This document shows, in pieces, positions 1 to 62,739 of a DNA stretch of 64,000 bases (its first letter is position 1; every line of letters begins with the position of its first letter). The notes beneath the pieces were generated by a model. The model was not told where the DNA came from, made no database searches, and was given only the letters and a program-made list of their open reading frames with translations. The position numbers were made by a program, and so were the translations under genes. The stretch spans positions 62,001-126,000 of the forward strand of contig QPGO01000142.1 in assembly GCA_008632985.1 (NCBI GenBank), read 5' to 3'. This DNA is from Psammoneis japonica. Its lineage: Eukaryota.

Positions 1-1800
1 TGATCCGCTTGTCTTTGACAAGGTCCGTTTTGTTTTTGTCATTCCGAAGAACAACACAGGCAGTTTTTGACTCCCAAGTGATTCTGATGATTTGGTTGCT
101 CGCAACCAACTGAGGGGATGACATTTTCCTGGGTTTGAGGTCTTGGGAGGCAAGTGGACTGTGGAAGAACACTGGTTTGCCTGAGACTGTTGGATGCAGC
201 AATTTTTGTTTCATGGCCAACCAGAGCCATGCAGTGGGCCCACTCATCTGCGTGTGTGATGGTTGCTGGCAGGCTCCCTTTGTTCAGCCAAATCATTTTG
301 CAAGCTCATCCATGTCAAAAAATCCAAGTCCATTTTGCAGTCCAGCTCAACAGTGGCATGGCCAGGGATGACCTTGCAGCCCATGGCGCCAAGGATGTCC
401 ACGATCTCTTCGACATCTTTCCTTCGTGCTTTTGCCATGGTGACGCCATGATTCTTTGCTGGTTTGGGTTTTCCATGAGGAGACAATCTTTGTAAACTTG
501 TTGGAAGAGTGACACAATGAGTGTGCTGTGCACCCTTTTGATCCAGTGAATGACTGGAAGAAGCAGGAGACAGGTCAGGAGAAGCTTGTCCCAAATGAGA
601 TGACCAGGTGCCTGTTGCTTTTTCCAACAGTGGGAGTGTTGTGGGTGACATTGAACCACAACCTGCAAGATTTTGCCACACACCTCTCCACTCAAGAGAA
701 CCATGAGTTTACATTGCCAACTCATCAAGACTCTTTTTTTGATGAGGACTCCTGCTTGCAAAAGTTTTCCGAAAATGGTGATGATCACTGTCGCGGACAG
801 AGTGGTTGCAAGTGACATGTTTAAGACTGAAGCAGAGCCAGCCCTGTGGCAAAAGGTTCATGGACAGATGTGCAATCATTGCACAAATGTTTTTCAACAA
901 TGACTCTCACACTCTGCAACATTGCCCATTTTTGGGCCCAACAACGAAAAATGAATGTCGCATGATGCGAACGTCTCACAAGTGCGAAAATGACATTGCA
1001 GAAAGCATGCCAAAGGAGAAGCCCCTCTGGCTGATCAGACTGATTGGATTCTTGTGGGCAACAACAGCACAGCAACAGCCCCATGACCGATGGGACAAAA
1101 TTTTAATGCGCACATTTTTCACACACACACCATCACACCACGCACCCTGTCTCTGACTGGCTCTGAGAATGCAGCCACACTCTTGTGTGATGCACCCATG
1201 TCTGTGTGGCCTTGATTGCTTGCAGTTGTTCTCATCAATTGCTTGAGAGATGGCAGTGACAGCCTCTGTGGGGAGAGATCCAGTCTTCCTTGTGCATCTC
1301 AACCCATTCGTCAAAGTCCCAGAGGCTCACACAAGCCCTCTTCTTCGTTGAGATTTTGTGGTGTGTGCGCACTGCTGCACACGACGGAGCTTGGATGGTC
1401 TTAATGAAATGACAGAAAAAGCTCCACAGCTGCATCGAGTTGTCGTGTTGGGTTTGGAAGTGAAGGCGACTTGCCTCCTGGTCCTGCCGTTTGGTCTCCT
1501 CGAACGCAGTCACCAAATCATGGATTCCCTCTCTCTCCTCTTGCTGTGCAGCTGGAAAAAACCACAAGATTTCATGGAAAATCAGCTGCACTGGCAAGCA
1601 AACACAACCGAGACAACCAAAAGCTGGAAAAACAGAACGATTGCAGTGCAGCAATCAACAGTTTCTCTACAATGTGTGATTTGTGACAGAGTTCAAAAAA
1701 GAGAAGATGCAGAGAGGCGCTTTTGCGGTGTGTTGTGAAAGATCTGGTGCTTGTTTTTCGTGGGTTTCTACGCAGTGGTTGGAGGGTCACCCGGAAATTG
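1..1800. other. Degenerate CpG- and TpA-depleted domain (decayed repeat or gene remnants, identity unresolved)
   Basis: CG and TA nearly absent, TG/CA in excess; ORF translations lack Tyr and are rich in C/H/Q/M; composition normalises gradually by ~1.8-2.2 kb. Confidence 0.7.
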
Positions 1801-15679: not shown

Positions 15680-16690
15680 TTCAATTTGCTGACGTGTGCA
15701 ATGAGCAGCGGCAGAAATGTGAAGCTCATTTTGGTTCACACCAGTGCATGGTGCAGGACCATGATTTGCTCATGAGATCTCATTGGCACTGCCATGACCG
15801 GACACTTTAGCTCATTCTTGCTGTGGTGCACAATTTTTGTTTTGGTGCCCACATGGGCCCGGGGGCCTCTCTCAATTGTTGGCTGCCGGGCCGGGTGCCG
15901 CACACTTGCTTTGGAGCAGCCACAGTTGTTGGCGGCACTGTGGCTGTGTGCAATTTGCAGACACCCTGATTCAGTGGGAGTTGATGATTGGTGTTGTGCA
16001 AATGTTTCAAACATCATTTTGATTTTGAGTGTGTTGTTCAGAGTCAACCAGCTCTTTCCAATGTGTGTGCTCCCCCCCCCACACACACACACACACACAC
16101 ACAAAAGAAACAGCTTTTGCCGTGATGTTTTCTCTTTTTTGCAAGAGGCGCATGCTCTCTTTGCAGATCTCAAAAATGTCCTGCAGCAGCCCATGTGAGA
16201 CAGTGGTGCCAGGAGCAGAGGCGCACCCTTTTTCTTCCACAGCTGTCTGCGCACTTGTGTTTTTTTCGTTTTCTTGAGCATGCCCGGGTTCTCTGGATCT
16301 GCAAACTTGTGGTGGCAGCCAGTGGGCTGTGATTGATGAATCCAGAATCCACCACAGCATGCCAAGCAATTGCTTGTGGCATTTTTGTTTGCAATGGTTG
16401 GTGCAGTGCAGCCCTCCTCCTGAGAACTGAGAATTGAGCATGATTTTGTGAGGTGTGCTCAGTGATGCCGCCGCAGAGAGCACTGGGTTGTGAGGGGGGG
16501 GGGGGGGGGCAGGTTGAAAGCAGCACCAAGTGTTCAGGGTGTGAACAGGATTGCAGAAGAGATGATGTAAAAAGGGAAGGCATCCAAATGAGCACTGGCA
16601 CTGGAAAACTCCCCAGCAAAACCATCAATCATGCTGGGATTCTGGCATGGTTTGACACACAAAATTTTTGAACAAAGAATTGCCCTGCAC
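15680..16690. other. Degenerate CpG/TpA-depleted island containing poly-C+(CA)n (~16072-16102) and poly-G (~16494-16509)
   Basis: TA almost absent, TG/CA excess, simple repeats read directly. Confidence 0.75.
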
Positions 16691-16821
16691 AGTACATCTA
16701 GCTAATTTTTCTATGACACCTCAGCTACGACATCATTACACCTTTCCTGTCGGATAAAGTGCTCATACAGGCTAAAGCAGTCTAGACAGTGTACGGTCGA
16801 GCACAGCGTGTCTATTTTCGT

Positions 16822-17676
16822 TTATAGCATCTGCTTGATGATCTCATCCATTTGCTCACCCTTATCGCCATAGTCGTTTCGACCTTGCTTCTCGTTCAAT
16901 TGCTTGGTTTGAAATTTTGATTTAGGCGCCGACAATTGAAACGGCCACAAGAAGGTGTTGGCCTCGGCAAAGTTATCACCGACAGTCGTCAATTCATGCA
17001 CCAAATCTTCTACACAAATAATTCCTGTCGATTCTCCCAAGGCCTCTTCAATGATTGTATTGTTGGAGAGTGGGACGCGTTCTCCCTTGATTTTTCCGTG
17101 TCCTCGCCGATGAATCAAATCCTGCACTACGGCAGGAGACGCAATTCCGTAAATCACCCACGGCTCCACGAGATGAAGCAATTTCTTCATGGACGCATTG
17201 TACCGACAAAACACACCCTCGTGAATCTTATTGAGTCGAATTCGACAAAGTGCTGCCCTGACGTTTTTAGGACAACCAACTTGATCACGAATACGAACGC
17301 AAAACACCATGGGTGCTCCCACCGAATTCGCTTGGTACGTGATAGTCTTGGGTCGTTGCTTCTTGTCATCATCGTCCTCGTTTTGCACTTGCTTGCTTAC
17401 CATGATTTTCTTGTTGGACGCACGTTTCTGCATTCCCTTTTTCAAGACACGCTTGTATCGAATGTCATTGTTTCGACGAGCACGAGCATTCGCGATAAAC
17501 GTTTCCGCCTTGTTGACCTTGATCGCCTTGGTTGTAGAGTATTTTCTGCGTTTGCCACGAGGCAGTTGTGCGTCGCGTTTCGCCTTGAGCTCATCCAAAT
17601 CATGCTTGCGCTTCAAGACCGATTCAGGGACCAACTGTCCATTGTTGTTGTTGCTAGTCTGATTAGATTCGGGCAT
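16822..17676 (-). CDS. RLP7: uL30/RPL7-family ribosome biogenesis protein (RLP7-like)
   Basis: VPESVLKRK, LHLVEPWVIYG, RGHGKIKGERVPLSNNTIIEEALG, IICVEDLVHEL, NTFLWPFQL; divergence from canonical L7 favours RLP7; ATG 17676. Confidence 0.8.
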   Translation of the reverse strand: MPESNQTSNNNNGQLVPESVLKRKHDLDELKAKRDAQLPRGKRRKYSTTKAIKVNKAETFIANARARRNNDIRYKRVLKKGMQKRASNKKIMVSKQVQNEDDDDKKQRPKTITYQANSVGAPMVFCVRIRDQVGCPKNVRAALCRIRLNKIHEGVFCRYNASMKKLLHLVEPWVIYGIASPAVVQDLIHRRGHGKIKGERVPLSNNTIIEEALGESTGIICVEDLVHELTTVGDNFAEANTFLWPFQLSAPKSKFQTKQLNEKQGRNDYGDKGEQMDEIIKQML

Positions 17677-18099
17677 GTTGTTGCAGATGATGGATGACGC
17701 GTGACAAACTAGAGTGGGGTGTGTTATTCTGTCGCATACTCTAGAGTAGACTGTTGCAAGGGATTGGCCCTGCTCTCGTCGCGGTGATTTTCGTGAAGTT
17801 TTTTTCTTTTTTTTGTGTGGTTGCGAGCGAGTGAATGAACGAATGAATTCCAACGGTCTGTCTGTACCGTAAGAGTCAGTGAGGGCGGGCGGGCGGGCGG
17901 GATCGTGTCAGGTGATGGTCTGTCAGGCGTCGTGTCGTGGCATGTGCTGGGATGGCTCTCTCTCAGTTCTCTGTGAAACTCGGCTTCGGTCATAATTCAA
18001 ATCTTGCACCGCAATTGTGATGACATGTTGGAACATCCTAAGAGACCCAGAAGTGTGCCCATTGAAGTGAGGATGCCTCAGATCTTGATGCAGTGCATT

Positions 18100-19910
18100 T
18101 GGCGACACACGAACATGTGCCCACAAAAGGAAGAATTTCCGACACTTGCAGTCTCCACACACTGTCATGCAATGAAGAAACCTTGGCTGCAACAAACATT
18201 TTCAGCTCAAGTTTAGGGAACTCATCATTTCCCACAGAGAATGACAAGGTGGAAGCGTGTGTCTGCGACCGCGTTTCGACTCACCCAAGGGTGGTCACGC
18301 TGCACTGTGAACCTGGCTGCACACAGGGAAGACATTGAACCCCCACAAGACAGGGCATCAAGGACTGCAAGTTTGCAGGAAAGCATGAGAGAACAATCTG
18401 TGCAATGATGCTGACTGGACTGCAGGAGTGGATGACAATGAAATCAAAAGCAACAGCAATGGTGCAGCAATGATGACAGTGCAGCAAGTGAAAACAATGG
18501 TGTGTGCTGTGCAACCAAGAATCAGAACAAGAAGACTCTGTGAAGACAAGCCCGACTCAGACCATGAGCATGAGGAGGCCAACGAGATGCCAGCCAACAA
18601 AAGATTCAGCCCCAATTGACAGCATGAAGCTCAAGAGGAGCAAGAGGTCTAAGAGGACCCAGAAGACAACAGTCGCTGTGAGAGTGAAGAGTCTGAAATG
18701 GATGAAGAGAACCAGCAAGACCCAACAAGATGGGAGGGCAAATGAATGGAGCAAGAAGCAAATGCTCTGGAAGGAAGGGCAAAAAGAACTGGAAGATCCT
18801 TCAACATGATGTCACAGAGACACACAGAGAAGAAAATTTGCTTTGCAGGAGTGGCAGATGCTAGAAGGATGGCAAAGGAGCAATGCAAGCTTGAGAGCTG
18901 CCACCATTTGCAAGCCAATGTGAGTCCCAATCCAAAGCACAACCTGGAATGTGAAGCAGAAACAGCAATGGTGTTCACACACTTCATGTGTGAGATCAAT
19001 GACTGTTTCCACAGTGGAGAGAGTGCAAGTTTTGCCCAACAACATTTGCTCCATGAAGGCATCTGGCTAGAAGGGGCACGATGAACCACAAAAGGAAATC
19101 AAACAGTTGCACAACCAAGTGTGCTTTGCACCAATGTCAGTCAAGGACATGACTCCAACTGAAAGGACCAAGGCCAAGGCAGCCTTGATGTTCCCAACCA
19201 AGAAACAAGATGGTTGCATGAAGGGGCACATGGTCTGTGTTGGTGAACTGAACCAAGAATGGCTGGACAAGGATGAGTCTGCCAGCCCTGCTGCACCCCC
19301 AGAAGCTCAAGGGATGCTCATGGTGGCAGTTGTTGATGCCCATGAAGGATGCAACAACATGAGTGCCAACATTCCCAATGCATTGGTGTGGACCATGACA
19401 CCAGAGTCTGGAGAAGGCAAGAGGACCAGATTGTGATTCAGATTGTAGAAGTGCTGGTGAACATGCTTGTGATCATCAATCCCAACCTGTGTGTGGACCT
19501 CATGTGGTCCCAGAGAAAGGCAAAAGAGTCCTTTACATCCAAGTCATCCAAGCCATCAGTGGAGTGCCAATCATGGCTCTGCTGTGGCACAACAAGTTTT
19601 GAAAAGATTTGGAGAAGACAGGGTTTAAGTTCAACCCTTGTGATCCATGCATTGCAAATCATGTGGTGTCAACAGCAAGCAGCAGTGCACAATTTGATTT
19701 CACATGGACAACCTGTTGTCAAGCCACAAGAACCTAAAAGCAAACAACAAGTTCCTGGGCTGGCCAAACAAGATGTGTGGCAGCCATGGCAAGGTTGTTG
19801 CTGTCAAGGGAAGAGACATGACCATCTTGACATGACCCTCCCAGACTTCAGCCAAAAGGGCAAAGTGAAAGATGACATGGTGGACTGCATTTGCAAGATG
19901 ATTGAGCCAT
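18100..19910 (+). mobile_element. Decayed Ty1/Copia (diatom CoDi-type) pol fragment: post-integrase region and reverse transcriptase
   Basis: KQLHNQVCFAPMSVKDMTPTERTKAKAALMF, DGCMKGHMVC, ESASP, VDAHEG..MSANIPNA, LLWHNKF, GFKFNPCDPC, FHMDNLLSSH, RHDHLDM, KGKVK; multiple frameshifts; no LTR seen. Confidence 0.85.
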
Positions 19911-22900
19911 TGTGGGCTGTTAACTTCAAGCATGACAGGTGTGAGACCTGTTCTTTAGACAAGAGTTCTGATGCATGTGGGTGAAAGATCCCTGATGATT
20001 CAACGTTCAGTGCAAACATGAGGCAAGGAGAGCCTCAAAACCTGCACACCTTTGTCACATCAAAGAAAAACAATGTTGAAGGAGAGACACATGATCATTT
20101 GTGAGAAGAGTTTGTAGATGGACCTGACTTTGTGCCATTTGTGGCAATCAAAGACAAATGGCTTGTTGACTCTTGGTCATGGTTTCTTGGCTCATGGGAT
20201 CTGTCTGGACTGCCAATGACCAAGACACAGGACAACCCAAGCAAATGTGCCCAAGATGCCTCTGAGCAGCAGCATTGAGTTTCAAGCTTGAGAGATGAAC
20301 TCATGGATTGGCTGTCAACTGGCAGGGCAAATGTTGCCATTGACCCATTCATGAAACAGCATGTGGCCAACTTGCATTGGCTGATGATTGACACAGACAA
20401 AAGGAATGATGAGATGAGACTGATGGAATGCACAGAAATTGAGAACAAGCTGAGGGCATGGGTGGAACTGTGGAGGCAAAACCATTGTGCCATGAGAGAA
20501 TTGCATGACAGCAGCACAGTGAGACATTGGTGGACACGCGCTGGTCAGCCAAGGCATGTGACTGCTGTTGCACCAATGTTCTCCATGCACAATGGCAACA
20601 ATGTCAAGATGCACAGAATGAATGTGCACAAGACCAGAGAGTGCTGGCGGATGTTTTGCATTGATGCCAAGCTGGAGGGCAAGACATGTTGCTGACACTG
20701 CAGACTGAACAACAGATTTGAGAGGAGCACACCAGACTGACATGTTGCCAGATCCTGGAATGTGAATCTCCAACTCACATTGGACAAGCAAGATGTTCTT
20801 GCAAGTTGTGTTTGGAATGGTGAAATTGTGAACTGTCATCATCCCTGTGATGGTGGCAATGATGAGGATGATGTGACTCCTGCCAAAGCTGTGCACTTCT
20901 CTTTCTTCTGTCAAAGGATGGCACAAGTCCAATCCACTTCACCATGAAGTGCAAAGTTTGTTTCATTGTTCATTGAGAAAATCCTGCTGAGGAACAATCA
21001 ACTTTTCTGTGTCCTCTTGCCAGCTGGCAACCTTGCTTGCTGGTCAATGTGACATTGCCCATCTTGCACACGTTGTCCCCCTTTTGGCTCTGTTGCAGCA
21101 ACAGAGCAACTTGGGCTGCTTTGGGTGATGGGACAAAGATCAAGTTCTGGACCAACTCATCTGTGCCACCAAGCTTGACCATTGCCCAAAAAGTTTTAGA
21201 AAGCTCCCACACTTGGGTTCTGCTGCTCAACAGCGGGGCTGGCATTTCAAGCCTGCATCTCAGGCAAAAAACAACACATCAAATTGTCGTTGAAGAGGTT
21301 GACAGCAAAAGAATCACTCTTCAGACAGGTTGCTGTGGCAGCAGTCTGAGGCTGAGCACAGTGGATGCACCAGACTTCAACATCAGCAGCATGAGCCAGG
21401 AAACAGCAGATGAGCCACTCTCTTCTTTTCTCAGCACAAAAGGACAAAGCGGCACCCACTGACATCCAAGATCTTGTCATCACAGCACAACAAAGCAAGA
21501 AAGTCATAAAATTTGGCTTGCAGAACTGGCGGACATCAAAATCCTTGTCATTGAGGTCACGCAAACAATGCAATGCCAGCTTTCTGGACACTGTTTACCA
21601 CCACATGATTGTGCCTGTGAAAGATGTTGACAGGTGCCAACCAAGTGAAGCACATGTTGACAGCTGCACAGATTTTGGTGGGGAACCAAACATGAGAAGA
21701 TGTGAGAGTGCCCAGCACATCAGACAATGTCAGGGAGATCCTGGCTTTGACCAGCTTTGCTTGTTTGGAATCTCTTTTGTCATGTGCAGCTTTCTCAAGC
21801 TCTTCACACATGATGGCAAAGGGGATCATCCCTTTGCCAAAGGTCAGACAGTCCTTCTCAATGGCGGCATTTGTCATTGCCATTGTCATTGCCACCATTG
21901 TTGCTTTCTTGTTGTTGTTCATTGCCGCCATCAACATGATCATCAATGACATCAATGCTGTCTCTTGCTCTTGTTGCTGCTGTTGCTGTTGTTCTGCAAA
22001 CACACATTCTGGTCATCATGTTTTGCCCAGACCAAGTTGGCCAAGGCAGCAAAAGCATTTGGTGGCCATTTCATGTGAGGAGATTGTTGATGGCAAAAAA
22101 GCAAAAGGTTGTTCAAGAGAGAGAGAGAGAGAGAGAAAGAGAGAGGTTGGCCACAAAAGAATGGACAGTGAGAGAGATGCAGCACGCGGTGAACCAACTT
22201 GAAAAAATCATTCGTTCGAGTCAACTTGCCTGGCCTCCTCCACCACTTGGATCTTTTTAACACGACAACCTCAACCACGTAAACAGCAACAGCTGGCTGC
22301 TGATGAAGCCACCATGAAAGTCTCGCTCCTGACTTCGGCCAATGTTGTTGTGCCTGCCATTTGTCGAGTGGTTGGACAAACATCCGCACTGGTGGCTCCC
22401 ACCTAGCCACAAAAGAATGGACAGTGAATGCAACACAATCCAATGTCCATCACCCCACACATCACAGGAGCAAGTGGGGTGAGACAGATGGTGTGATGTT
22501 TTGCAGCTTGGAAGTGTGTGCAAAATCATTTTTCTCATCCACCACCAGCCTGTGTGATGCATGGCTGCAGTTCAATCTGTGTGAGCACCATTGCAGGCCA
22601 GAAGAAGCTGTTCTTTACAAGCAAGGATCACACTCATGTGGTTTCAAGCTGCTTGAGACAGTGCTCACAGTTCATGACTGTGCCATGGAAACTCAATGAG
22701 AGTGTCTGGTGCACTCAAGTGCTTTGATGCATGCTGCACCCATCAACAGGCACATGCAATGATCAATTTGAGCTGACAAATGGATGGTTTGGTCTTCACC
22801 ATGTGAGGCACATTCATGGATGATTGCAGTGATGTTCCCTTTTTAGGTGGGGACTGTTGAAGCTGGGCATTTTGGCCACTCTGCTGCATCAGTCTGCAAG

Positions 22901-22989
22901 GCCAATCTTCACTGAAACACTGTGATCCCTCTGTTTCTCAGTTGCAGTGCTGCCAATGCATGAAACAGTGAACCTTGTCTTTGACTTTT

Positions 22990-25100
22990 GATTGACCATT
23001 GTGGTCATTGCATCATTGGGTTCTCAGCTTGGATCTCATTCTGGTGCGCGTCTGGGTTCCCACATCTTGTGTCTTCCAGGACCCATTGCAACTGCTCACA
23101 ATCAGGACACAGCTGGTGTCCATTGGATGTTCCTCCATGGGTGAGGCCGGGGATGATGTGTGCTGAAACATCTCTTCTGCAAACACCTTTTCAGCTTCAA
23201 TTCTGTCTTTCAATGTCTTTGCATGAGCTGCAACCTGGCCTTCACCCACATCTGATGCAAACTTTGCCAAAATGGCTGGATCATGCAAGATGAGAAGATT
23301 CTGTCCCTCGTGGTTGCAAATCCCAACATGGCACCAGCAGACATCCTCTGGGCTGTGCATGATCCTGTTCTTGTGAAAGACATCAAGCAGCACCATTCCA
23401 CTGGACAGGATTTGCCTTCTTGGTCAAGTTTTGCCACTGGCCTGAAAAATGGCATGACAACACAATTGAATCCATTCAATTTGACATGGCACACCTTGCC
23501 TTGAAGACACCTGTGCAAATCTGGGAGACAATTCACCTCTTTCATTGTTGCCTCCAAACCCTGACTCATGAAACCTTTTTCATGAAGTGTGTTGCCATCA
23601 TTGTCAACATTTCTGATGCACATTTTGACAACAACCTTGATGCCATTTGAAGCCAATTGCATGCCACACATTTGAGGTTGCCCCACAGCAAAAAAAAGCC
23701 TGTCAAACAATGCATGTTGTTGTCCCCATTCAGCCCTTCTTTGCATTTTCCCTTTCTGTTTTCCCAGCCTTTGAGGTGCATTTGTGGGCAATGACACATG
23801 TGCCCAGATGAGCTGTCAGACTCCCCCAGTTGCACCCAGCCTTGCCTGCAACAAATTGAAGAATCCACAGGAATCAACAAACTGTGTTGAAGCTTGGTTC
23901 CCTGCCACAATCATGAATGGGTGGCACCTTTGGTGTTTGCATCATCTTGATGCCAAGGTTCAGTGCTGTGTGGAGCATCATGTGAACCAATTCATGAGGC
24001 TTGAAGACTTTGAGTTGACTCAGTCTTTGCTCATGAGTCAGAATGGAACCAAGGCTGGAGTTGTCATCAGAAACAATGTTTGGCATTTCCACAGAAGGTG
24101 GTGATGTTGAAGTCAAATGTTGCTGCTGGCTTTTTGTGAGTGGAGTGTTGACAGCAAGGAAACGTCAGTGCACTGCTCCTTGTCCATTTCTTTGTTGAAC
24201 ACATCATTCCAGCAGATGCATGTCTCATCCATGCTGGTCAAAACAACAAAGGGCAACTGATGCCCACTTGCACATTGACTTTTTCCACATTTGAAGACCT
24301 CTCCCAACACTTTTGGGTGCTCACACAGACTGGCTGAGTGCTCTCCACCAGAGTTTGTTGGCTTCTTCATTTCAATGACAAGCAATGGCAGAGAACATTT
24401 TGATTGATGCACAACCAGGGTGTTGGATCTCCCTGAAAGAAATTGCACACTGGGAACAGGGCAAGATTCTCCATGGCAGTGTGGTGAATGACTGCACCAA
24501 CCATCCTGGCAACATCAGATGAATTGCCACATTCAAGCACTTTGCATTTGTGACCACCAGGTGGGCTGTCAGTGCGCTGATCAACGAAATGCATCAGAAG
24601 TTGCAAAGCATTGTCCAGCAGCTCAGTTGACTCTTCTTTGATTTCCTGCATCTCAAAGGCACATTCCACTGCAGAAGCATCCTTGTGGCTGCCCTTCACA
24701 CATGTGTGATTGCTGCCCACTTGCTTGAGCACCATTCTTCCCTCCTCCAATGTCACAAGGGTGCAAAGACTCCATTGTTTTGCAACTTTGTGTCTTGCTG
24801 CAACTTTTCCTTGACTTTCTCATGAGCTTTCTTTTCTGCTCTAACTTTTTCCTTGACTTTCTCTTGAGCCTGCAAGCTTTCTTTTCCTCTGCTCCAAGTT
24901 TTTCCTTGACTTTCTCACAAGAAGTTTCCTTCTCTGCTTCAAGTGATTTCTCAAGTGCTGCAAGAAGTGCTTTCCATTGAGCTTTGGTGGGAGACTTTTT
25001 GTCTTGCTTGATGTTGCTGAAAGGAGACAACTCCTTGTCAACATGTTTGAGTTGTTTCAACTGCCTTTGGCCAGTTTCACTCATGTCCAGAGTGGCTTCT
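22990..25100 (-). pseudogene. Decayed gene: coiled coil, PD-(D/E)xK-like segment and kinase-like C-terminus (Crinkler-like architecture)
   Basis: Collinear fragments: EEKK-rich coil, LLVIEMKKP, KVLGEVF..GHQLPFVVLTSMDETCICW, VVVKMC, CVVMPFFRPV, EDVCWCHVG (read as mutated DVRWRHVG). Confidence 0.55.
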
Positions 25101-25279
25101 GTGGGAGAAAGTGAGTGCAACCCTTGACCCTTGACACAACACAGCAGCACAGGAGTTTGTTGTGACAAGTTGTGATCACTGATGATTGATCAATCAGCAA
25201 AAGCAAGTGACTGCCTGCATGAAGTGTGGAGTGTGGGGGGAGCACCACAAGCCATGCTTGTTTCTTGTGCTGTGCCATG

Positions 25280-27937
25280 AAATGCCCAACAATTGTCACA
25301 ATTGGAAGCATCAAATTTCTTTGACAATTTGTCAATCAACCTCAACAAAAGTTCAACAAAACTTGCAAGCTTCTGTTCACTCTCACACGGTGCACATCTG
25401 CCAAATTTGATGTGGGACAATCTCAACTCTCATCTCACTTCACTTGCAACCCAAACAGTGGAGCTTGCAATGCTCCAGGACATCACTTTCACATTGTCTG
25501 GAGACTGCCACAGCAGCCCAAAGATGGTCCTGTGAAGAGTGTGCCATTTGCCAGAACACAGACCGGCACAAGGACCAGCTTTTTCCATCAACAGCCTCCA
25601 TGACATGGAGCAACAAATCTGCGCGGTTGCTGTCCAAGAGTTGAATGGTGTTGACAATGCACTCCACAACTGTGGCTGCACAATTTGGAGCTGGTGCAAT
25701 GGAACAAAAACAAAACAGACAGAGGCCAACTCTGGAACATTTCTTTTGCCACTTGTTGCATGTCAAACCAATGTCAACTGGCATTGACAGCTTGTGCTGC
25801 TGCCAGTGTCATGAGAGGTGCCAACAAACAGATGCCACCTTTCATTCAAGTCTGCAGCCCATTGCACACACATGCAGTTGTGATGATTCTCTTGACTGCA
25901 GTGCAATCCAGATGAACCAAATGGCTGATGGCTTTAACCAGCTCAGCTCAAGGCTGATTTCCATGATGTCTTGTGACACCATTTCGTGCATGGCTTCACT
26001 CTTGGTGACGGAGGCAACCATTTCATCACCTTGAGCAAGATTGCAACAGAGGGTGTGGAGCTCTTTTCTCTCTGCAAAATGCAACACAATGGACAACAAG
26101 CAAGAACACAGATGTCAATTGCAAACAGAATGCCAACAAAACAAAAAGAAGAACAAGCTTGCCCAGATTTGTGTCAGACAAGTTGGTCATGTCACAAAGG
26201 GTTGCATCTATGACTTGTTCAGCCACACTCATCTTTGGAGTTTGGCATGCAGGAGGGAGTCACCAAGGCCTTGTCCAAAGCCTCTGGACTGCTGTCAAGC
26301 ATTGCAATTGCCTCATCTCTTGAGGTGGCAGATCTGGCAACCAAGGCTCCCTGACTGCCTGAGCAATGTGCTGCAACCAAAGGATCCAACTGATTGCAGC
26401 GAAGACAGCTGTTTGTGTCATGGCCACCAACACCTCTGGAGCCCTTGCTCTCAAGCTGCACATCTTCACTCACATGCCTGTGAGCATTGTCAATGTGCTC
26501 CCCACTGGCCAAATGACAGCAGGGCTCACCAACAGTTTCTGTGAGAAGCTTCTAAGCTCCTGCCACATTTGTGGAACAGCTCTGTTGGATGTGGCAGCAA
26601 ATCCTGCAACGCTGAGTCCAAAGTCCAAAGTGACATCATGTTGGCTCCTGCTCTCATCGCCACCTTGACTGGCATGCACCATGCCATTCCCAATGTTGTC
26701 ACCAGCAAGACCTTGTCATTCAGATGCTTTTTGCTCAAGGTGGGTGTCCTTCATGACCTTTGTTTTCTGCACACCAAGAAATGCAAATTACAGATTCAGT
26801 GGAGCCACAACAAAACATGAGCTGGCAAACAACATTGCTGTCAATGGACTTGCCTTGTGCAGCACACAACTTGCATCACATGGGCACAGCAGCAAACAGC
26901 ACAAGAGCACATCTGTCCATTGGGTCCACCATTTGGATCAGGTGCAAATCTGGGTTGTCTTTCAACCAACACACACATTGAAAGCAGCCTTTCCCATTGG
27001 GCCTCATTGGACAGTTTTGCTTGCAACAGTGGCACACAAGCAGTGCAGAATGAGTCTTGCCACACCTTGGCTTTTTGTCCTTCTTGCCATTTGCCATTCA
27101 TGCCACAACCACCTGCCTGCACTTCTCCTTCACCACTTTGTTCTTCCTGTCCACCTGTTCATTCATCTCTGCTTGCATCGCAGCATTGTGATTGCAGCAA
27201 GCACAGATGTCTGTGTGCCTTTTTTGTCTCATCCCACTTGACTGCATCATGAACTCTCCAGCATGTTGACTTGCTGTGTTCTTGCCAGATTTGACTGGCA
27301 CTTGGGGACTGGACCTTGTTCCTCCAGCAGTCTTCAACAAGCTTGACAAGCTGTGCAGCTTGCACGGCTCTGTTCTCCCATGTCCTGCTGTTCATTTGCT
27401 GTTTGAGCTTGGCTGACAGATCAATCAGTCTGCTCAGATCCAGAATGCATTGTGCGCAGAAGTCTGCACTCCAGCTGAGTTTGTGTGCTGCCAAAATTGC
27501 CCCTGAGATTTTGAGGTTGTGGATCTCAGCAACAGCATGCCCCTCCTTGGCCGGTCCTTGGAAGCCAGCCTTTGACCCTGCAGCTCAGCCAATGTCCTCT
27601 GCTCCAGTGATGGTGGTGGAGCAGATGCCGCAGATTCATCCCCGGCATGATTGGTTGAGGATGCCTCTGGTGCCTGTGTTGACAGCAAAGAAGTTTGTTG
27701 GGAGCTGCGACATTGTTGATGAAGAGTGTGGACAAGACAAGCAATGCCACCATCAAACTTCACACATGATTCTGCATTTTTCCTGGTCTGCCAGTTGTCA
27801 GAATCATGCGCACTGAGAAGTCCGCAGGTTCAATGGGATGCCAATCAAACTGCACTGCTTTTGTTGAACTTTTGTTGAGGTTGATTGACAAATTGTCAAA
27901 GAAATTTGCATTTGATTGTAAAAATTGTTGGGCATTT
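25280..27937. repeat. ~80-bp inverted repeat pair (25280-25362 and 27858-27937), possible TIRs of a decayed DNA transposon
   Basis: aaatgcccaacaatt...caaatttctttgacaatttgtcaatcaacctcaacaaaagttcaacaaaa occurs forward and reverse-complemented. Confidence 0.75.
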
Positions 27938-29288
27938 TGCAGCAATGACTCAGTGCATCACAGGAGTGACCTCCACACCAAGAGTTTCAATGTTTCGCAG
28001 CAGGTGCTTCCAGCGGCAGTGCCCCAGGTCTTTTCTGTTGACACTTTTTGTCTCAGAAATTTGGCACATGTCCAAACCATTGCAGTTGTGCAGTTTGCTG
28101 CCACATTGGCAGTCATCAGTGTCATCATCTTTCTAACTGGTGATGGACAAATTTTTGAACATGATTCTCAAATCATTCACTCAACACGGCATCCGACATC
28201 ACGGTGCTGATGTCAAGTGGGCTCAATCTTGGAGAGCTCTCACCTTGCACTAACATGTGCAAGGTGTGCCACTTTTGACCAGTTTGATTTTTTCATTGTT
28301 CAGCAGTGCTTGTGGTGCATCACTGCCATTGTCAAGCAGCAAAAGCTCTGAAAAACACTCGCAAGATTCTTTGCTGCACGAGCACCGTTTTCACAATGTT
28401 TTGCTTTCTTCTGCCCTTTCACCCAAAGAGTCACAGAGAACAGATAAAATGACATTCTGTCACATTGAGCTCTTCTCTGCAGAATGGCTGACAGTCATGG
28501 TCAGTTGGTGAAAGGGTGTTCTTGCACTTGCCCTGAGCAAAGAAGTTGTTGTGACCCATGCAGGTTTTTTTTGAGCACTTGGGCATGACAACTCATTGAT
28601 TGCAGACATTGTGAGGCTGTTCCACATGCAACTCATGCAGGTGCAACAGTGAGACATGCAGAGCTTGAGTCCCTGCATGACTGTGGTCACATTTGGTGCT
28701 GTGCAGATTTCACGCAGAGACCTCTCGCACAATGTGCTCAGTGGCCAGCCACCATGCCGTGACTCCATTGCATGTAAAGCTCCTGTGGCCTGTTGCAGGT
28801 TTCACACCAGGAGTTGCATTTTCCAACACATGCTTCTGCGTGATCAGCTGCAAACTGTGGACAGCCCACAGGCACAGGAAAGCAATTCAGAGCTCATGTC
28901 TGCTGCAGTGATCACAGCATTGGAAGCATCGCTCAGTCAAAACAGCAGCGACATGATTGCAGGGAAGCAATGAATGTCATGAGTGAGAACAGCTCATCCA
29001 AAAGTCTTTCTGATGAGACCTTCAGGACACCTGGTTGCATCTGCTAGTGGTGAAGGGTGTCCGTGATTTTGTAAATCCGGACCACAGCTGCTAGCTGGGT
29101 TACGAGTCACCTTAAGAGACGACGGACGGACGGAAGCGCCACAATTTTCTACATGTGCATCAACGTACTGTACAGTACGTTCGCGCATGAGTTTTGTTTT
29201 TACTTTGATAGGAGCACTTACTAACATGCTCCCGCGCCGCCCATCATCAGGCACAAACGCCGAGCAACGATCAAGTTTCACTAATCGA

Positions 29289-29580
29289 ACACTGGTGTGG
29301 GTTGTGAATCCCAAAAGAGACGGGAATCATATGGAGTGCACGGAGCCGGTCTTGTCGCAAGCACCTCTTTGTTGTTGTCTTGTCCTGTTCCAGTAAGTCC
29401 AAGCCCACGATGAGGATGATTCGAGGAGAACTTTAACCAAACACTTATGTTTGTTGTGAATCCAAAGCTTGCATTTAAAAAAGAGAAGTGTTTCATATTG
29501 AATATGGAGTGCACGGAGTCGGCCTTATTACAAGTACCGTTTCTTGTTGTCTTGTCCTCTCTTCCAGCAAGTCAAAGCCA
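29289..29580. repeat. Diverged direct duplication (~120-140 bp, 2 copies)
   Basis: ttgtgaatcc...atatggagtgcacggag...ttgttgtcttgtcct...ttccag.aagtc.aagcc at ~29289-29407 and ~29441-29580. Confidence 0.8.
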
Positions 29581-29654
29581 GCGACATCTTTCTTTCTCTA
29601 GAACAAATAAAAGAGTGCAATAAATGCTGACAGCAAGCTGCAACTAGTGCACTG

Positions 29655-31067
29655 TCATTCCCCTTCGTCATAAACGATTATGGTGCTGTTGTCACCACCG
29701 CTCGAAGCACCCCGCCACTGCAACAAAAGATTGGATCCCGGACGAGAAGGCGTACCCTGAGCCAATGCCAGTTCAGTTGAACTGAGCCTTTGCAAAAACG
29801 TCCCACATCCTCTTTCTGAATAATTCATAGCATGGATTGTGAAGGAACCCCGGCCCTTTTTGTTTGTTTTGGCCCCAACGAACAAAAGGTCAGGTGTTGG
29901 GTCAAACGGCGGAAGCCACCCTTCGGTTCTGCCATTCCTGTATAGACCCCTCTCAAACCTTCCAGCACAGTACCGGTAATTCTCCTCAAAGGTCCCTTCT
30001 TCATTGGTTTGGATGACATAAATGTCCATTAGTCCGTCACCATTCACGTCTAGAACCTCCAAATCCGGAGCAGCATGCGGCAACGATATATGATAGTACG
30101 GGCGACCCATGTCAAAATATGGCTTCTCTGGCAATCCTCGGAATATCTTTAATTTTTGATTGCCTGAATACCCAATAATGGCAAGTAGTTCCGGTACACC
30201 GTCTCCTGTCATATCGGCAGTACGGATGTTTCGAAACCGCTTGTTGGAGCGAGGCAGTTCATACGGAACAAATTTTTTGTTCTTTTTCTGTATGAGAACG
30301 GTTGCTCCAGCATTAGAGAATCTACCAGGGAAGAATAACAAATCATCGGCACCATCATTGTTGAAATCTGCAACAAGTGCTCGTGTCAGTTGGAGTTCCT
30401 TGTTGATATGCTTGTTTCGCACTTCCTTGAAAAGCCGACCGCTCTTCTTTTCGGGTATGACTTTGTACAACCGGTGCCAATTTGGAAGACCATCAGATCG
30501 TGGTGCGCCGTTGGTTGTGAGTAGCAAAAGTTTTGAGCCATCTGCACCTCTCAAAGGTATCGCGTCGCGAGATCGCATGGACGGAGTATCGTATAGACCA
30601 TGGTTGAATACTTTTTTGAGAGACCCATCTGACTGTGTAATGTAGACTTCGTTGTGTCCCTCCCCAGTCCCCATGACGGCCCCAACAGCACAAACCAAGT
30701 CCGCAAGGCCGTCATTGTTGGCGTCTATGGCTCCGCAACCGTGTCGATCAATCCGTTCCTTACCACCAACTTCATCACTCTCTGCAAGTCTTGCAACCTT
30801 GTTTTCTTCCCACACACCTTCACTCGTCTCACAATAAGGCGCCTCTAATATCTCATGACCGACCCACCAATATGTTCTAGCATTATCACACCATGGCGAT
30901 CCCTCTGGCATTATCATTGTAGGTCCGAACACGCGTGTCAACGGCTCAACAACCGTGACCTCAGGCTGGTACTCCTTGTCTGTTTTTACTAGTACCACCA
31001 CTACAGGGTGGGGCAGCAAAGATAATACAGTAGCTACAATCAACCAGTCGTTCCAAAAAAGTTTCAT
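29655..31067 (-). CDS. Secreted FG-GAP/VCBS repeat (beta-propeller-like) protein
   Basis: Hydrophobic N-terminus; DANNDGLADL, DFNNDGADDL, DMTGDGVPEL, DVNGDGLMDI Ca-binding repeats; intronless. Confidence 0.85.
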   Translation of the reverse strand: MKLFWNDWLIVATVLSLLPHPVVVVLVKTDKEYQPEVTVVEPLTRVFGPTMIMPEGSPWCDNARTYWWVGHEILEAPYCETSEGVWEENKVARLAESDEVGGKERIDRHGCGAIDANNDGLADLVCAVGAVMGTGEGHNEVYITQSDGSLKKVFNHGLYDTPSMRSRDAIPLRGADGSKLLLLTTNGAPRSDGLPNWHRLYKVIPEKKSGRLFKEVRNKHINKELQLTRALVADFNNDGADDLLFFPGRFSNAGATVLIQKKNKKFVPYELPRSNKRFRNIRTADMTGDGVPELLAIIGYSGNQKLKIFRGLPEKPYFDMGRPYYHISLPHAAPDLEVLDVNGDGLMDIYVIQTNEEGTFEENYRYCAGRFERGLYRNGRTEGWLPPFDPTPDLLFVGAKTNKKGRGSFTIHAMNYSERGCGTFLQRLSSTELALAQGTPSRPGSNLLLQWRGASSGGDNSTIIVYDEGE

Positions 31068-31129
31068 GGTCTCTCTGCCACAATAATCAACGACACGCGA
31101 GCTGTTTATTGCTTCAATGCAGGCTCACA

Positions 31130-34100
31130 TAATGGCAATGGAAAAAATGAAGCTTGACGATCTGAAATCTGATGAGATCAATGAGCACGAGCACGGCAAA
31201 ATGTGTGCGTCTTTGTTTGCCCGCACCCTGCTGAACGCCGCACCAGCGCACTCGCACATCGCGTTGAACGTTGAACTGGGCACCCGAAGTGCAGCTCCAT
31301 CAATGCGCTGCTCTTGGGCACTGAGGAGCATCGTGGGTCCAGAACTCAATCTTCTTCTGGCATCTTGGACAGTCTGTTTGGGATGTTTGGACCCCTCACT
31401 TGTTCATGAATCATGAAGGGATTCCTTCCACACTGGTGGCTCGCACCACCAGCTGCTGAGTCTGGCTGGACTGAGCAAGAGTGCTGGCCATGGTCTCTGC
31501 TGTGCCAGCTGCTTCAGATGATTTTGCATGGACAGATGTGTTGTGCATCATGGTCAGCAGTTCTCAGTGATTGAGCTGGTTGGGATGAGGCAGGGAGCTT
31601 GCTGACTGTGGCTTCTGATGCACCAGCTGTGCACTGTGCTCGCACACAGCAGGGAGAGGAGCAGCCACATTGAGGCAATTCACAGATGTGACAAAGTGGC
31701 CCAATCCAGATGTCTTTGCATTGGCAGAGTTGTTGTGCATCATGGTCAATCAAATCTTGTGAAGCAGCAACGAGGATGAGCAGTTTCAGGAAGACTTTTT
31801 GTGAGAGACCACCCAAAAAGCTCGTTGATCAAATTGGGGGCGCTGCAATGTTCAGGAAACAGCAGAGTCAACCCATGATGACTGCAGCAAGAAAAATGTT
31901 GCTTTTTGTGTGAAGAATTTCTGATGTCAAATGTGGCAATGTTCTTCAGATGCAATCTCATGCTTGGCATGGGGAGAAAGCAATTTTTGCAAACACAGCA
32001 TTGGTCTGAGAGGGTTGGCTTGGCCTGACAACAAGTGGTCTGCCAAGAAAGCACAGACAAGAATTTGGAAGTTAGCTCAATTGCAGAGCTCAACTGTCAA
32101 AAAGCAAAAGCAGACAAAGATGTGACAACTGCTTGGCAATGAGAAGAGCTCAAGACAGGCAACTTGGGGTTGTGCGGGAGTGTGGAGACGAAGATGCAGA
32201 GACGCTGCAAAACACACCGATGGCAGAGGGTGGTCTGTGCCCCCCCCCCCCCTGCACAAGTGGGGGGTTGTTTGCATGATGTGTGTCTGCATCACTTGTC
32301 ATGACACAGAAGCAGTGTGCGCAAGCCTGTGAGCACCATTTGAGCCACAGCAAGATCATCCCATTCTTTCATCAATGCTGCACTGCATGTTGATGACAGT
32401 TGAGAGTGAGTTTTTGCTTGCAGCACATGCTGCCCACCCTTTGCAACTCTCTCTGGCTGGAGAGCTCCATGTCTGGGCTCCCCTGATCTTGGTCTCAAGC
32501 TTGAGGTCTGGTGTGCACAGCTTGCACCACAACAAGCCCCAGAGAGCTCATCCAAGAACTCATCAGCCACCAGAGGAAGAAGAGTCAGAGAGCAGCAGAG
32601 GACAATCAACACATCAATTGCACCCACTTGCTGGCTGGAGACCATCCATGTGAGCTGCAGAGTTAGAGCAAAAAAGAAAGCCAGTTGTGTGCCCAATTGA
32701 TGCCATGAGTCATTTCCAAGCTCAACACAAGACAAGTGAAATGACTTGCTGTTCCCACCACCCAAATTGTTGTCTCCAGATGTGCCCAACAATGGAGCCA
32801 TTGAGAGCACCTGGTGCCATTGTTCCTTTGTCACAATGTGAGTTTTATGACCCACATCACTGCACCCTCAAAAACAAAATTGTCAAGACACAAGGCAAAG
32901 GTCATTTGTTGGAATTTTGTGGCTTGCCAACTGGCACACTGTGCTTGGTCTTGCCAATCCCTGAAGTCAGCATTGCATTGACTGCAAACACTTTTTTGTT
33001 GCTGTTGCCTCCACTGCCATGTCAGCCAGGTGCAGAAGCTGAAAAGTGAGCACAAGACCCACAACTCAACAGGGAGTTGCAAACATGCAAATTTGCCACA
33101 TCATCAATGATCGTCAGTGTGCCCTTCACTGCAATGTTGTCTCTGTCTTGTGAAAACCACCTCACACCCAACAAATGTTCCAACAAGGTTGCCATGTGCA
33201 GTTTTGTGGCAAAACCCATGATCCAGCCCAGTGGCCAAAGTCACAGATGCCTTGGCTCTTGGCTGTCAAGGTGTGTGTTGTCAAATTTGTCAAATGTGTC
33301 TGCGTTTCTGTCACAAAAAAGTGCGTGCAGCACAGACAGACAGAATGACCACAAGCACAAGAGAGCAGAGGTGGTTGAAAAACATTTGCAGTTTGTTGCC
33401 ACACATCACATCTGTGCTCATGTTTGCAGAAACAGAAGATGCTGTCAATGATGTGCAAGATGCAGCAGCTGCAATGGAGCCATTCTGGGAAATCTTGCCA
33501 TTGGCATCACTGTGGCAGCCATTGTTGTCATTGTGTGCAGCAGCAACCTCGTGCAAACATCTGGCAACCAATGCTGACAATGAAACAACAAGTTGCCACA
33601 AAGACCAATGATCTTTGACTTTTTGTCTTCACCCAGTGCCCAGCGCCCATGACTCAAACAGGGTGAAGCAAAAACTGCACCAAATCAACAAAACCCAGGT
33701 GCAAAAGCCATGGGCACTCACTTGTCCCTTGCACTCCTCACCAAAGAAGAAGAGCAACTCTCATTGTCTTTGTGGTGCTCTCTTTCACGAGGCACTTTTC
33801 TGCCATTGTGTTCTTTGATCAACTCATTGACTCATTTGCACAAGGTGGGTTGCCACAGGAGACTTTTGACCACACTGCAAAAAAGCAAAAGAGGCGGGGT
33901 CAATGTTGCCAGCTTTCTTGTGGCATGAGCTGGGGCTGACCAAGATCTGCAAGACAACCTCGCTGGCTCCTTGATGCAAAGGTGTGCAAGAAGAGCGCTG
34001 ACACCAACAAAAGAAGGGTGGTCGTTGCACCCAGTCTTTTGTGGAGAAGGAAATGACCGCATCCAAGATGTTTTTGAAGTGACATGGGCTGTCGCTCGTG

Positions 34101-39889: not shown

Positions 39890-40470
39890 CATGGCACATG
39901 GAACTCGATGCATGCTGTGTCGGCACAAAGGAAGGACCAACCTGAAGTGACGCACACACACGTGGGGCTTTCTAGACCCTGAGATTGTCATTTCCAATGC
40001 AGCTGTCTAGCCTCCATCTTATTTTGTACTGTCAACAAAATTGTGTGGTTGTGTGTTCTTCACAGCTGTTCTTTGCAAATTCAAGCTTCGCAACAACAAA
40101 AAAAGAGCCGCACGATGACATGCAGCGGCCCCAAAGCTGTGTGCGCAGCGCTGGGTGTTGCTCAAAGCCTTCACCACAGCCGCAAAAGCCATTTCCTCTC
40201 ATGGCATGCCCAAAGAATTTTTGTTTTAAAGGATTGAGTTTGACAGTGCCAGGCACCTGTGGAATTTTTGTGCCCAAAGGTTGTCTGTTTTCCACAGCAC
40301 AAAAAGCGGCAAAAGGAGAAATCATGTGTTGTCATTTTGGTGGAGCCCTCCTTGGAGCCAGCATTCATTGTTCTGTCAATGCTGCTCTTCAAAATGTGTG
40401 GCACCAGAGCAGCCATCTTTCTATTTTGAGTCTTGTTGGTGCTGTCCAGCTGAAGAGGTGCAACGAGGAG
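39890..40470. other. Small degenerate TpA/CpG-poor island
   Basis: TG/CA excess and few TA, flanked by AT-rich intergenic DNA. Confidence 0.55.
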
Positions 40471-40823
40471 CCGTCGTCGTCGTACGCTGAGAAATTGCGA
40501 AAAAGTGGAGAGAAAAGGAAATGTCCGAATTCGATCAAATATCTGACAAATATTTTCAGAAATTAGTAAAATATAATGTATTCAAACATGCATAAAGCAG
40601 TTATCGCCATTCCGTCGTTCGTAAATCATACGAGCATGAATAATGTTATAATGAATTCGGAAAAATTGACAAAATAACCCGGATCCAAACACACGACGCA
40701 CAACGCACAACAACGCTAACAAGCTAACAAAGCAACAACTGAACACGTCGGTGTCAAGACAAGTAGAACAACAATTCTCTTTCAGTTTACAGTTTTTCTT
40801 TTTGTTTATGGCATTTTGAAAAT

Positions 40824-59061: not shown

Positions 59062-59419
59062 TCTATCTTCTCCTGCTTTGTAATCGCCAAGCCGATTGCC
59101 TTCTGTCGTTCTCCACCTCTCTCTCTTTTCTTTCTCTTGTGTGAGATCACTCCCAGCTTGGGAGGTGCGAGATGAGCTAAACGAGGGTATGGAATACCGG
59201 TACGACCCACAACATGGTTTGTGTCCCGACTCAGCGCGCGGTGTCATCACGCATCGAATAATCTACGATCAACTCGACTCAGCTCGTCCTTCGCACGTAG
59301 ATACGGATGACTGACGGACGCTGTCGTTGCCTCTCCCGCCGCCGCCCTCGCCCCGCCCTTTCCAAAGAACAGGCTCTCACAGCGCAGAAGCCAGCGGGTG
59401 GGATGCGTCCTCCCATGCT

Positions 59420-61280: not shown

Positions 61281-61401
61281 CGCCGCATAGCGCATAGACC
61301 ATGGACATCATGGCATAGACTAGAGCACATCACGCCGAGCAAAAGCAGCGGCGAGTTTTTGGTTTGGTGATTGAAACAATCATCGAGTAATCATCGAAAT
61401 C

Positions 61402-62635: not shown

Positions 62636-62739
62636 ATTTTTGGTGCTGTATCTTGACCTCCTCGACGGTCCACGCCTCATTTTCGGCCACTTCACGTGTC
62701 GTAGGCCCTCCCCATCATTTTGTAGGCCCAAAAGATGCC

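Follow-up and report, generated by a model that had tools for sequence, protein, structure and literature searches.

Seven domains of a diatom contig have lost nearly all TA and most CG dinucleotides, probably through two superimposed transition processes

We analysed a 64,000-nt stretch of the genome of the diatom Psammoneis japonica (GenBank assembly GCA_008632985.1, contig QPGO01000142.1, positions 62,001 to 126,000 of the forward strand). This stretch is called here the window, and positions are counted from its first letter. Seven domains of the window are nearly free of the dinucleotides TA and CG and lie beside intact genes. The underlying changes have a clear direction, are restricted to TA and CG and concern both strands. 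TA loss shows a preference for a pyrimidine on the 3' side, the TA and CG footprints are separable and their edges are sharp, and the erased state is reproduced in sequencing reads. We consider it probable that the domains are old, silenced, largely transposon-derived DNA that was rewritten in place by two transition processes.

Composition of the erased domains

A scan of the window with a threshold of at most six TA + CG per 200 bp delimits seven domains (Table 1). Together they represent 19,960 bp, or 31% of the window. A first reading of the letters, made without database searches and called below the sequence-only reading, had counted seven domains covering about one third of the window. 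It had placed the limits of the main one at 18000-29040, which is correct to about 40 bp. The counts that it gave as an example are exact, with 0 TA and 1 CG at 24001-24300 versus 9 TA and 16 CG at 12001-12300.

The observed/expected ratio (o/e) of TA is 0.05 in the domains versus 0.57 in the remaining genic DNA, and that of CG is 0.17 versus 0.96 elsewhere in the window. TG and CA are enriched, with o/e of 1.87 and 1.83 in the domains versus 1.18 and 1.17 outside. The other dinucleotides are little altered, AA for instance being at 1.14 in the domains and 1.15 outside, with the exception of GC (1.25 versus 1.01). The G+C content is 0.48 on both sides, and the TpA/ApT ratio is 0.06 in the domains versus 0.63 outside. 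The mass balance is close: TA + CG go down by 81 per kb and TG + CA go up by 84 per kb. At genic density, the main domain would contain 420 TA and 626 CG, whereas the counts are 32 and 77. The longest run without TA measures 1,998 bp. In each domain, CG survives in a higher proportion than TA. When the window is cut into 300-bp windows, the distributions of TA o/e and CG o/e are both bimodal and the two values are correlated (r = 0.73). Within this window, the composition has two states, as the sequence-only reading had proposed.

These losses also reshape the apparent coding content. Counted per kb of strand, TAA is found 1.4 times in the domains versus 7.7 in the rest, TAG 1.1 versus 8.7 and TGA 26.1 versus 18.5. 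In six-frame translation, tyrosine represents 0.1% of the residues in the domains versus 2.2% outside, and C, H, Q, M and W are all increased. The loss of TAA, TAG and Tyr codons accounts for the C/H/Q/M/W-rich open reading frames (ORFs) that had been noticed at first sight. The thicket of spurious ORFs does exist but is moderate, stop-to-stop ORFs of at least 70 aa numbering 8.4 per kb in the domains versus 4.8 per kb outside. Erased blocks of this kind defeat Pfam-based transposon annotation and yield many false ORFs. Gene prediction in such genomes needs a dinucleotide filter.

Two internal controls give the direction of change

Two sequences located in the domains serve as clean internal controls. 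One is a fragment of a host cytochrome P450 gene whose intact parent lies 5.8 kb away, and the other is a relic of a reverse transcriptase (RT).

The P450 fragment can be aligned over 146 bp with the matching stretch of the intact gene, taken as the reference state, and 18 of the 146 positions differ. The changes are TA->TG (four cases), TA->CA (three), TA->TT (one), CG->TG (four) and CG->CA (four), plus one tandem TG->CA change that involves two positions. No difference is observed outside these dinucleotides. The copy has lost 8 of 9 TA and 8 of 10 CG, that is 16 of 19 targets, and seven of the eight lost TA became TG or CA. Target sites changed at least about 30 times faster than the remaining positions. 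Since the gene copy is the functional one, the polarity of the change is clear.

The relic is located in the main domain, and nothing else in the window could be recognised as transposon coding sequence. With the ORF 19071-19433 as query, an exhaustive phmmer search retrieved 626 relatives (best E 3.6e-23). RVT_2, the copia RT family, was matched by 11 of 13 scanned relatives at E <= 1e-5. When copia relatives were used in tblastn, the relic was located in several frames (Table 1), and no match was found in the window outside 18776-19972. Relic columns were scored if they had 20 or more relatives, at least half of them in agreement. In place of the seven conserved Arg, the relic has Q, Q, Q, H, C, stop and R, this last Arg being encoded by AGG, a codon without CG. 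In place of the five conserved Tyr, it has H, H, C, Y and S, and the seven conserved Ile columns have become M in three cases and V in two, I being kept in two. By contrast, 10 of 11 Gly columns and 6 of 7 Pro columns are unchanged, and Ala and Lys are mostly kept. These replacements match the expectation for CGN->CAN/TGN, TAY->CAY/TGY and ATA->ATG codon changes (N, any base; Y, pyrimidine).

Because of the P450 fragment, the RT relic and the mass balance, the domains are best read as the outcome of mutation run to near saturation and not as DNA of native odd composition. This agrees with what the sequence-only reading had inferred.

Two other features of the main domain were recorded. An inverted repeat has its arms at 25280-25361 and 27859-27937, 2.5 kb apart. 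Over 82 nt the arms match at 89%, and 50 nt are perfectly complementary, this perfect core being devoid of TA and CG. The arms could represent the two ends of a DNA transposon, or else have arisen by inverted duplication. ARAGORN also predicts a tRNA-Phe (GAA) at 19573-19650 (+), within the RT relic. This prediction is treated as spurious; it has no Rfam support, and no Rfam match reaches the gathering score in the whole window. Finally, a Pfam search with the six read-through frames of 18001-29081 returned no family.

The TA and CG footprints are separable

Change points were fitted by maximum likelihood, separately for TA and CG, and ten edges were compared. The edges are sharp, within tens of bp, and lie 100-600 bp from intact ORFs. 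At four of the ten, the TA-free zone outreaches the CG-free zone by 200-460 bp (paired change points 1309/1769, 31131/31333, 33961/34165 and 60971/61288). At four others, the TA and CG change points fall within 40 bp of each other, and at the two remaining edges CG loss outreaches TA loss by about 100 bp. In the flank 60971-61288, TA has been erased without CG erasure. The interval 60951-61288 shows zero TA in 337 bp and 5.6 CG per 100 bp, which is the genic density.

The same dissociation is seen, with greater force, in a related copia family from metagenomes. Among the matches listed, 22 of 150 copia-RT relatives have less than 1% Tyr. Ten low-Tyr relatives were checked and all come from ENA, JGI or Logan assemblies. 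Metagenome contigs were then scanned with one Tyr-poor relative (P0072), which gave 29 loci (L001-L029). They include erased, half-erased and TA-normal copies, with TA o/e values of 0.01 in L002, 0.08 in L001 and 0.10 in L019, and of 0.2-0.4 and 0.5-0.75 in others. In the aligned region, CG o/e is 0.30-0.48 in 19 of 19 copies, whatever the TA state. The ancestral state was defined as the majority of 11 TA-normal copies. On this basis, L019 kept 3 of 48 ancestral TA (15 became TG, 20 CA and 10 other dinucleotides) and 21 of 34 CG. L024 kept 18 of 50 TA and L004 kept 35 of 63. In most TA-normal copies the share of TA retained is about 85-100%, and in three short ones it is about 75%. Reverse changes from TG or CA to TA amount to 0-6 per 89-403 sites. 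The TA-erasing process is visible in environmental DNA, here in microbial-mat and sediment assemblies. TA erasure is thus stepwise and is accompanied by no extra CG loss.

Two processes are favoured because the edge footprints differ and because TA erasure in the metagenome copies lacks extra CG loss. The sequence-only reading had treated the loss of TA and of CG as one process. Their co-occurrence is confirmed, but a single process is not, in view of the edge offsets and of the metagenome copies in which TA alone is lost.

One may still imagine that a single bifunctional deaminase directed to chromatin, for example an ADAT2-like enzyme acting on C and A, removes both dinucleotides. Such an enzyme would explain why TA o/e and CG o/e co-vary, why the change points agree within 40 bp at four of ten edges, and why the P450 copy lost about 80-90% of both dinucleotides without background change. 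Moreover, a preprint on Bigelowiella natans (B. natans), discussed below, cites amphioxus ADAT2 as editing A and C in DNA and trypanosome ADAT2 as deaminating C in DNA (bioRxiv 10.64898/2026.01.13.699255). However, the TA zone is the longer one at four edges and the CG zone at two, every domain retains proportionally more CG than TA, and the CG content of the metagenome copies does not follow their TA state, L019 having kept most of its CG. In addition, the B. natans events concern TpA only, and CpG is never mentioned in the main text of that preprint. We therefore consider a bifunctional enzyme unlikely.

The P450 gene is untouched, whereas its fragment located in a domain is erased. This points to targeting by place, and is a hint that targeting does not follow sequence duplication as in repeat-induced point mutation (RIP). 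The domains may be delimited by chromatin, as the sequence-only reading had inferred, by small RNA or by the boundaries of elements.

Strands and sequence context of TA loss

Both strands are affected about equally. The domains contain 2286 TG and 2321 CA. TA->TG and TA->CA changes number 4 and 3 in the P450 copy and, with the RT on the + strand, 15 and 20 in L019, 17 and 10 in L024, and 15 and 12 in L004. Strand-coordinated clustering, as in APOBEC-type tracts, was not found in eight mutated metagenome rows (runs-test p 0.19-0.71), which include two same-pattern pairs (L003 = L004 and L009 = L010). The strands are hit equally and the hits are interspersed, which argues against sense-RNA editing before reverse transcription and against long single-strand tracts.

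ADAR-like hyper-editing of retrotransposon RNA, the copies arriving already mutated, has to be considered here, since the single recognisable element is a retrotransposon and since ADAR prefers U before the edited A, as the discussion of the preprint points out (bioRxiv 10.64898/2026.01.13.699255). Editing of sense RNA would give TA->TG only, with A->G on the sense strand. The near equality of TG and CA in the domains, in the P450 copy and in the oriented elements, as well as the lack of strand runs, does not agree with this. A host gene fragment and non-element flanks such as 60971-61288 are also erased. This explanation is very improbable.

TA loss depends on the neighbouring bases. Fifty TA survive in the domain cores. 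None of them is in the context RTAY and 29 are in YTAR (R, purine), versus 517 (31%) and 293 (18%), respectively, of 1668 genic TA (chi-square p = 2e-13). As a share of their genic frequency, TAC is at 5% in the domains, TAT at 3%, TAG at 13% and TAA at 18%. TGC/GCA is the most enriched trinucleotide (1.85x). The metagenome family shows the same hierarchy. Four independent mutated copies were pooled, L003 and L009 being left out, and 82% of RTAY sites, 57% of mixed sites and 31% of YTAR sites are mutated. At mixed sites, the TAY strand was struck 39 times versus 17 for the other (p = 0.0046). In these copies, the per-strand hit rate according to the base 3' of A is 0.43 for C, 0.37 for T, 0.19 for A and 0.15 for G. 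What is recognised is thus 5'-T-A-Y on one strand, which amounts to 5'-R-T-A on the opposite strand.

The nature of the changes also bears on error-prone repair synthesis, in which a low-fidelity polymerase would mis-pair at TA in patches of silent or damaged DNA. The model is polymerase eta, an A:T mutator at WA motifs (W, A or T) in antibody hypermutation. Polymerase eta also favours A:T->G:C changes at an A preceded by T, and repair synthesis could tie TA loss to the repair of deaminated CpG. Such a polymerase would strike AA as well as TA and give frequent transversions. Here, the second WA motif, AA, shows no depletion (o/e 1.14 versus 1.15), and the changes are nearly pure transitions, with seven of the eight lost TA in the P450 copy and 102 transitions versus 17 'other' outcomes at TA in the four metagenome copies. 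Furthermore, TA was erased in L019 without CG change. Repair synthesis is, in our view, a distinctly improbable cause.

Read-level check and variants

A public run (X1) that contains 91% of sampled 31-mers of 24000-33000 was used for a read-level check, its Logan contigs being compared with the assembly over 15001-35000. These contigs reproduce the erased domains, with a word depth of about 52-75 (about 65x) in genes and domains alike. Bins of higher depth occur in parts of the domains, which suggests that these parts are multi-copy.

Over the 20 kb, only 33 single-letter differences separate X1 from the assembly, and 31 of them fall within the 14,960 bp that are erased (Fisher p = 0.008). Sorted by context, the differences comprise 12 CG<->TG/CA, three TA<->CA and three tandem TG<->CA swaps. 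A tandem swap is as expected if one ancestral TA or CG was struck on opposite strands in two haplotypes or copies. The variants suggest that both processes were still running after haplotypes or copies diverged, alleles, near-identical paralogues and assembly errors being indistinguishable in these data.

These contigs also bear on the view that the domains are an artefact of mis-called modified bases, or a native, foreign or selected composition that avoids TA and CG. Heavily modified DNA can give systematic long-read base-calling errors in some methods, and no record tells which platform was used for the assembly and for X1. Nevertheless, the erased state is found again over 20 kb in the k-mer contigs of X1, with a word depth of about 65x, and metagenome assemblies from other sources show the same state. 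Composition or selection, for its part, leaves unexplained the conversion of Tyr and Arg codons in the RT and of 16 of 19 TA and CG in the host gene fragment. We find this view hardly credible.

Several other observations were made with the reads. All six small insertions of the X1 contigs are in erased domains (18133, 18463, 19133-19134, 25579 and 32899). Heterozygous indels, or errors in the assembly of repeat DNA, may account for them. The summed word depth of X1 reaches 816 at 15001-15667 and 515 at 33010-33676, versus about 65 elsewhere, and many loose contig ends are found around 15528-15568 and 33029-33069. Both resemble short genomic sequences that are highly repeated, and the one at the 5' end of the helicase gene sits in DNA that is otherwise normal. 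A second run (X2), which covers a small share of the window, has contigs on gene bodies only and none on the domains; this was not counted as evidence of silence. A third run (X3) placed no contig, and no RNA run was listed as sharing words with this stretch. Immediately downstream of the FG-GAP ORF region, at 29392/29468, a contig of X2 leaves out 75 nt whose ends are GT..AG. The gap looks like a spliced intron and suggests that X2 is cDNA-like, though it is listed as 'DNA?'.

Proposed mechanism

In the scheme that we favour, two processes acting at the DNA level would both end in TG and CA. The first would be an A:T->G:C transition at TpA, giving TA->TG, or TA->CA when the other strand is struck. 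It would hit both strands about equally, favour 5'-TAY, and be limited to the domains plus a flank of up to a few hundred bp. We infer that it is the work of an enzyme that deaminates adenine in DNA to inosine and is directed to silent chromatin, where it would serve genome defence. The second process would be the decay of CpG to TpG or CpA, for which deamination of methylated cytosine is the most economical cause.

A polynucleotide adenosine deaminase of the ADAT2/TadA kind is a candidate for the first process, although we hold this assignment for somewhat less than an even bet. In tRNA, the deaminase target A34 follows U33, and in bacterial tRNA-Arg the next base is C35, so that the natural context is 5'-UAC. 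This context matches the 5'-TAY preference observed here and fits the ADAT2-type proposal made for B. natans. Should the enzyme prove to be a natural DNA adenine deaminase, nature would possess an equivalent of the laboratory adenine base editors, and a new class of eukaryotic genome defence would be defined.

More broadly, we tentatively raise the possibility that diatoms (stramenopiles) and chlorarachniophytes (rhizarians) share a chromatin-directed defence by DNA adenine deamination, a kind of 'reverse RIP'. Such a system would have a TadA-like 5'-TAY specificity, act on either strand, be independent of cytosine methylation and lead to complete TA loss in transposons. If this is true, the footprints in environmental DNA would show it to be widespread among marine protists. 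The window shows the end state, with kilobase blocks nearly without TA beside working genes. For a search of the mechanism, the strand-specific 5'-TAY preference, the separability from CpG loss and the intermediate environmental states should be useful.

Several points weigh against this interpretation. Both the targeting and the chemistry of the first process are inferences. A T lesion in 5'-RTA is indistinguishable from an A lesion in 5'-TAY. The context data obtained within the window concern surviving sites and not observed events. Only four of five informative TA events of the P450 pair are on the TAY strand, which is not significant, and only one of the three TA<->CA variants fits TAY. 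The case for targeting by place is made less strong by selection acting on the P450 gene and by the shortness of the overlap that can be seen. In the P450 copy, CG was lost at least about 30 times faster than non-target positions changed, so that plain decay of 5-methylcytosine (5mC) may be too modest an explanation.

The repeat origin of most of the domain DNA rests on extra word depth in some bins and on analogy, as there is one transposon relic only. A Pfam search with 142 domain ORF fragments of at least 76 aa gave no credible family, the 13 chance-level matches (E 0.005-0.05) being all under curated cut-offs. In a self-comparison of the window, the domains show no mutual similarity except for the 82-nt inverted repeat and the P450 piece. 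As for the supporting data sets, X1 is probably the assembly's own sample, and it speaks against a base-calling artefact only on condition that its reads are accurate, which is deduced from kilobase contigs at uniform depth. L019 is partly misaligned (25.9% of its other dinucleotides differ), which inflates its 'other' class. The metagenome copies come from few related samples.

Intact genes and other features of the window

The neighbours of the domains include intact genes with Pfam matches to DEAH helicase, uL30/RLP7-like, FG-GAP, ankyrin, poly(A) polymerase and P450 families. Together with the change points, these matches bear out the earlier remark that domains start within a few hundred bp of the intact RLP7, FG-GAP and P450 genes. 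The best named relatives of the uL30/RLP7-like protein are from diatoms (54-57% identity). A comparison of the FG-GAP protein with the protein atlas gave family-level matches only, without useful taxonomy.

Table 1 Positions of the erased domains, of the two internal controls and of the neighbouring genes in the 64,000-nt window
Feature	Position	Strand	Remarks
Erased domain cut by the window start	1..1760	.	6 TA, 37 CG; CG back at ~1309, TA only at ~1769
Erased domain separating the DEAH helicase gene from the uL30/RLP7-like gene	15681..16720	.	Scan and change points
uL30/RLP7-like host gene, intact	16822..17853	-	Pfam; flanked by two erased domains
Main erased domain	18001..29080	.	11,080 bp; change points TA 18040..29045, CG 18011..29062
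Decayed copia-type RT relic	19053..19906	+	At least four frame pieces
FG-GAP repeat host gene, intact	29655..31067	-	Pfam; flanked by two erased domains
Erased domain	31261..34100	.	3 TA, 28 CG in scan; left edge TA-free from ~31131, CG-free from ~31333 (200 bp offset); right edge CG back at ~33961, TA back at ~34165
Small erased island	40121..40480	.	360 bp; 2 TA, 9 CG
Cytochrome P450 host gene, intact	57538..59250	-	Pfam
Unmutated stretch of the P450 gene matching the fragment	58079..58224	-	146 bp; reference state
Erased domain	59401..60980	.	Begins ~150 bp from the P450 ORF
TA-free, CG-normal flank	60971..61288	.	Upstream of ORF 61375-62635
Erased domain cut by the window end	62701..64000	.	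Includes the P450 fragment copy
P450 gene fragment copy, mutated	63854..63999	-	In domain 62701..64000

Three other features were noted. A G-rich array with a 24-nt period is located at 38491-39227, within a 643-aa ORF (37554-39485, -) that carries DUF7467. A tandem array of 102-nt units is found at 4230-4637, within a 764-aa ORF (3014-5308, +) that has no Pfam match. The region 10501-11000, within the ORF 10247-11032 (+), is purine-rich (A 194 and G 164 of 500) and contains 6 TA and 33 CG. It looks like low-complexity coding sequence and not like an erased domain.

Comparison with known systems

RIP of ascomycetes makes TpA from CpA and hits both copies of a duplication. As in RIP, dinucleotide-specific transitions inactivate repeats here, genes are left intact and the genome has two compartments. 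The direction is the opposite, however. The RIP literature describes a C-to-T change, whereas TpA is destroyed in the domains, as their TA o/e (0.05) and their TpA/ApT ratio (0.06 versus 0.63) indicate. G+C content is unchanged (0.48 in both compartments) rather than lowered. Finally, the gene copy of the P450 pair keeps its 9 TA and 10 CG and the fragment has lost 16 of 19, the comparison being limited to the 146 bp visible and to a gene protected by selection. The defining features of RIP are absent, and RIP is a functional analogue that runs the other way.

The decay of methylated CpG resembles the CG half of the signature. It converts CG to TG or CA on both strands in repeat DNA, as seen here with four changes of each kind in the P450 copy and with CAN or TGN codons in the Arg CGN columns of the relic. 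Methylation in diatoms is described as predominantly at CpG (PMC5124317). Unlike the present signature, this decay has no effect on TA. With ADAT2/TadA and the TadA-derived adenine base editors, the likeness would lie in the chemistry, adenine being converted to inosine, which is read as G; here these enzymes provide a candidate only.

The closest known system is the TpA hypermutation of B. natans. In mutation-accumulation lines of this alga, de novo TpA->TpG/CpA changes, at TpA only, were described in the DNA of integrated giant viruses and virophages (Mettrop et al., bioRxiv 10.64898/2026.01.13.699255). Hypermutation was active in only some lines, an ADAT2-type deaminase is proposed, and the subset of low-TpA coding sequences is enriched for reverse transcriptase and DDE domains (bioRxiv 10.64898/2026.01.13.699255). 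Natural cases of targeted A:T->G:C mutation in DNA are almost unknown, and this 2026 preprint on an unrelated alga is the sole description that we found. Our literature search on TpA-specific erasure in diatoms or other stramenopiles gave no report, the preprint being its only relevant match.

The likeness covers three aspects. First, A:T->G:C changes occur at TpA only and give TpG or CpA according to the strand, as in the P450 copy and in L019. Second, the changes affect only foreign or transposon-like DNA, the remainder of the genome being normal; here they form seven sharp blocks, one of which contains the copia RT relic. Third, long-term TpA depletion goes with CpA and TpG enrichment, in clustered blocks.

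The two cases also differ. The host is a chlorarachniophyte in one case and a diatom in the other. De novo events were measured in B. natans, whereas here the changes are deduced from sequence states. The viral region of B. natans is at Rho 0.45, compared with kilobase saturation here (TA o/e 0.05). CpG is also erased in the present domains and appears nowhere in the main text of the preprint, which does not mention diatoms either. Likewise, the 3'-pyrimidine preference and the offsets between TA and CG edges found here are not described in that main text, where the words 'context', 'flanking' and 'trinucleotide' are absent. The TA process described here is of the same kind as that of B. natans, in a new lineage and in a saturated state.

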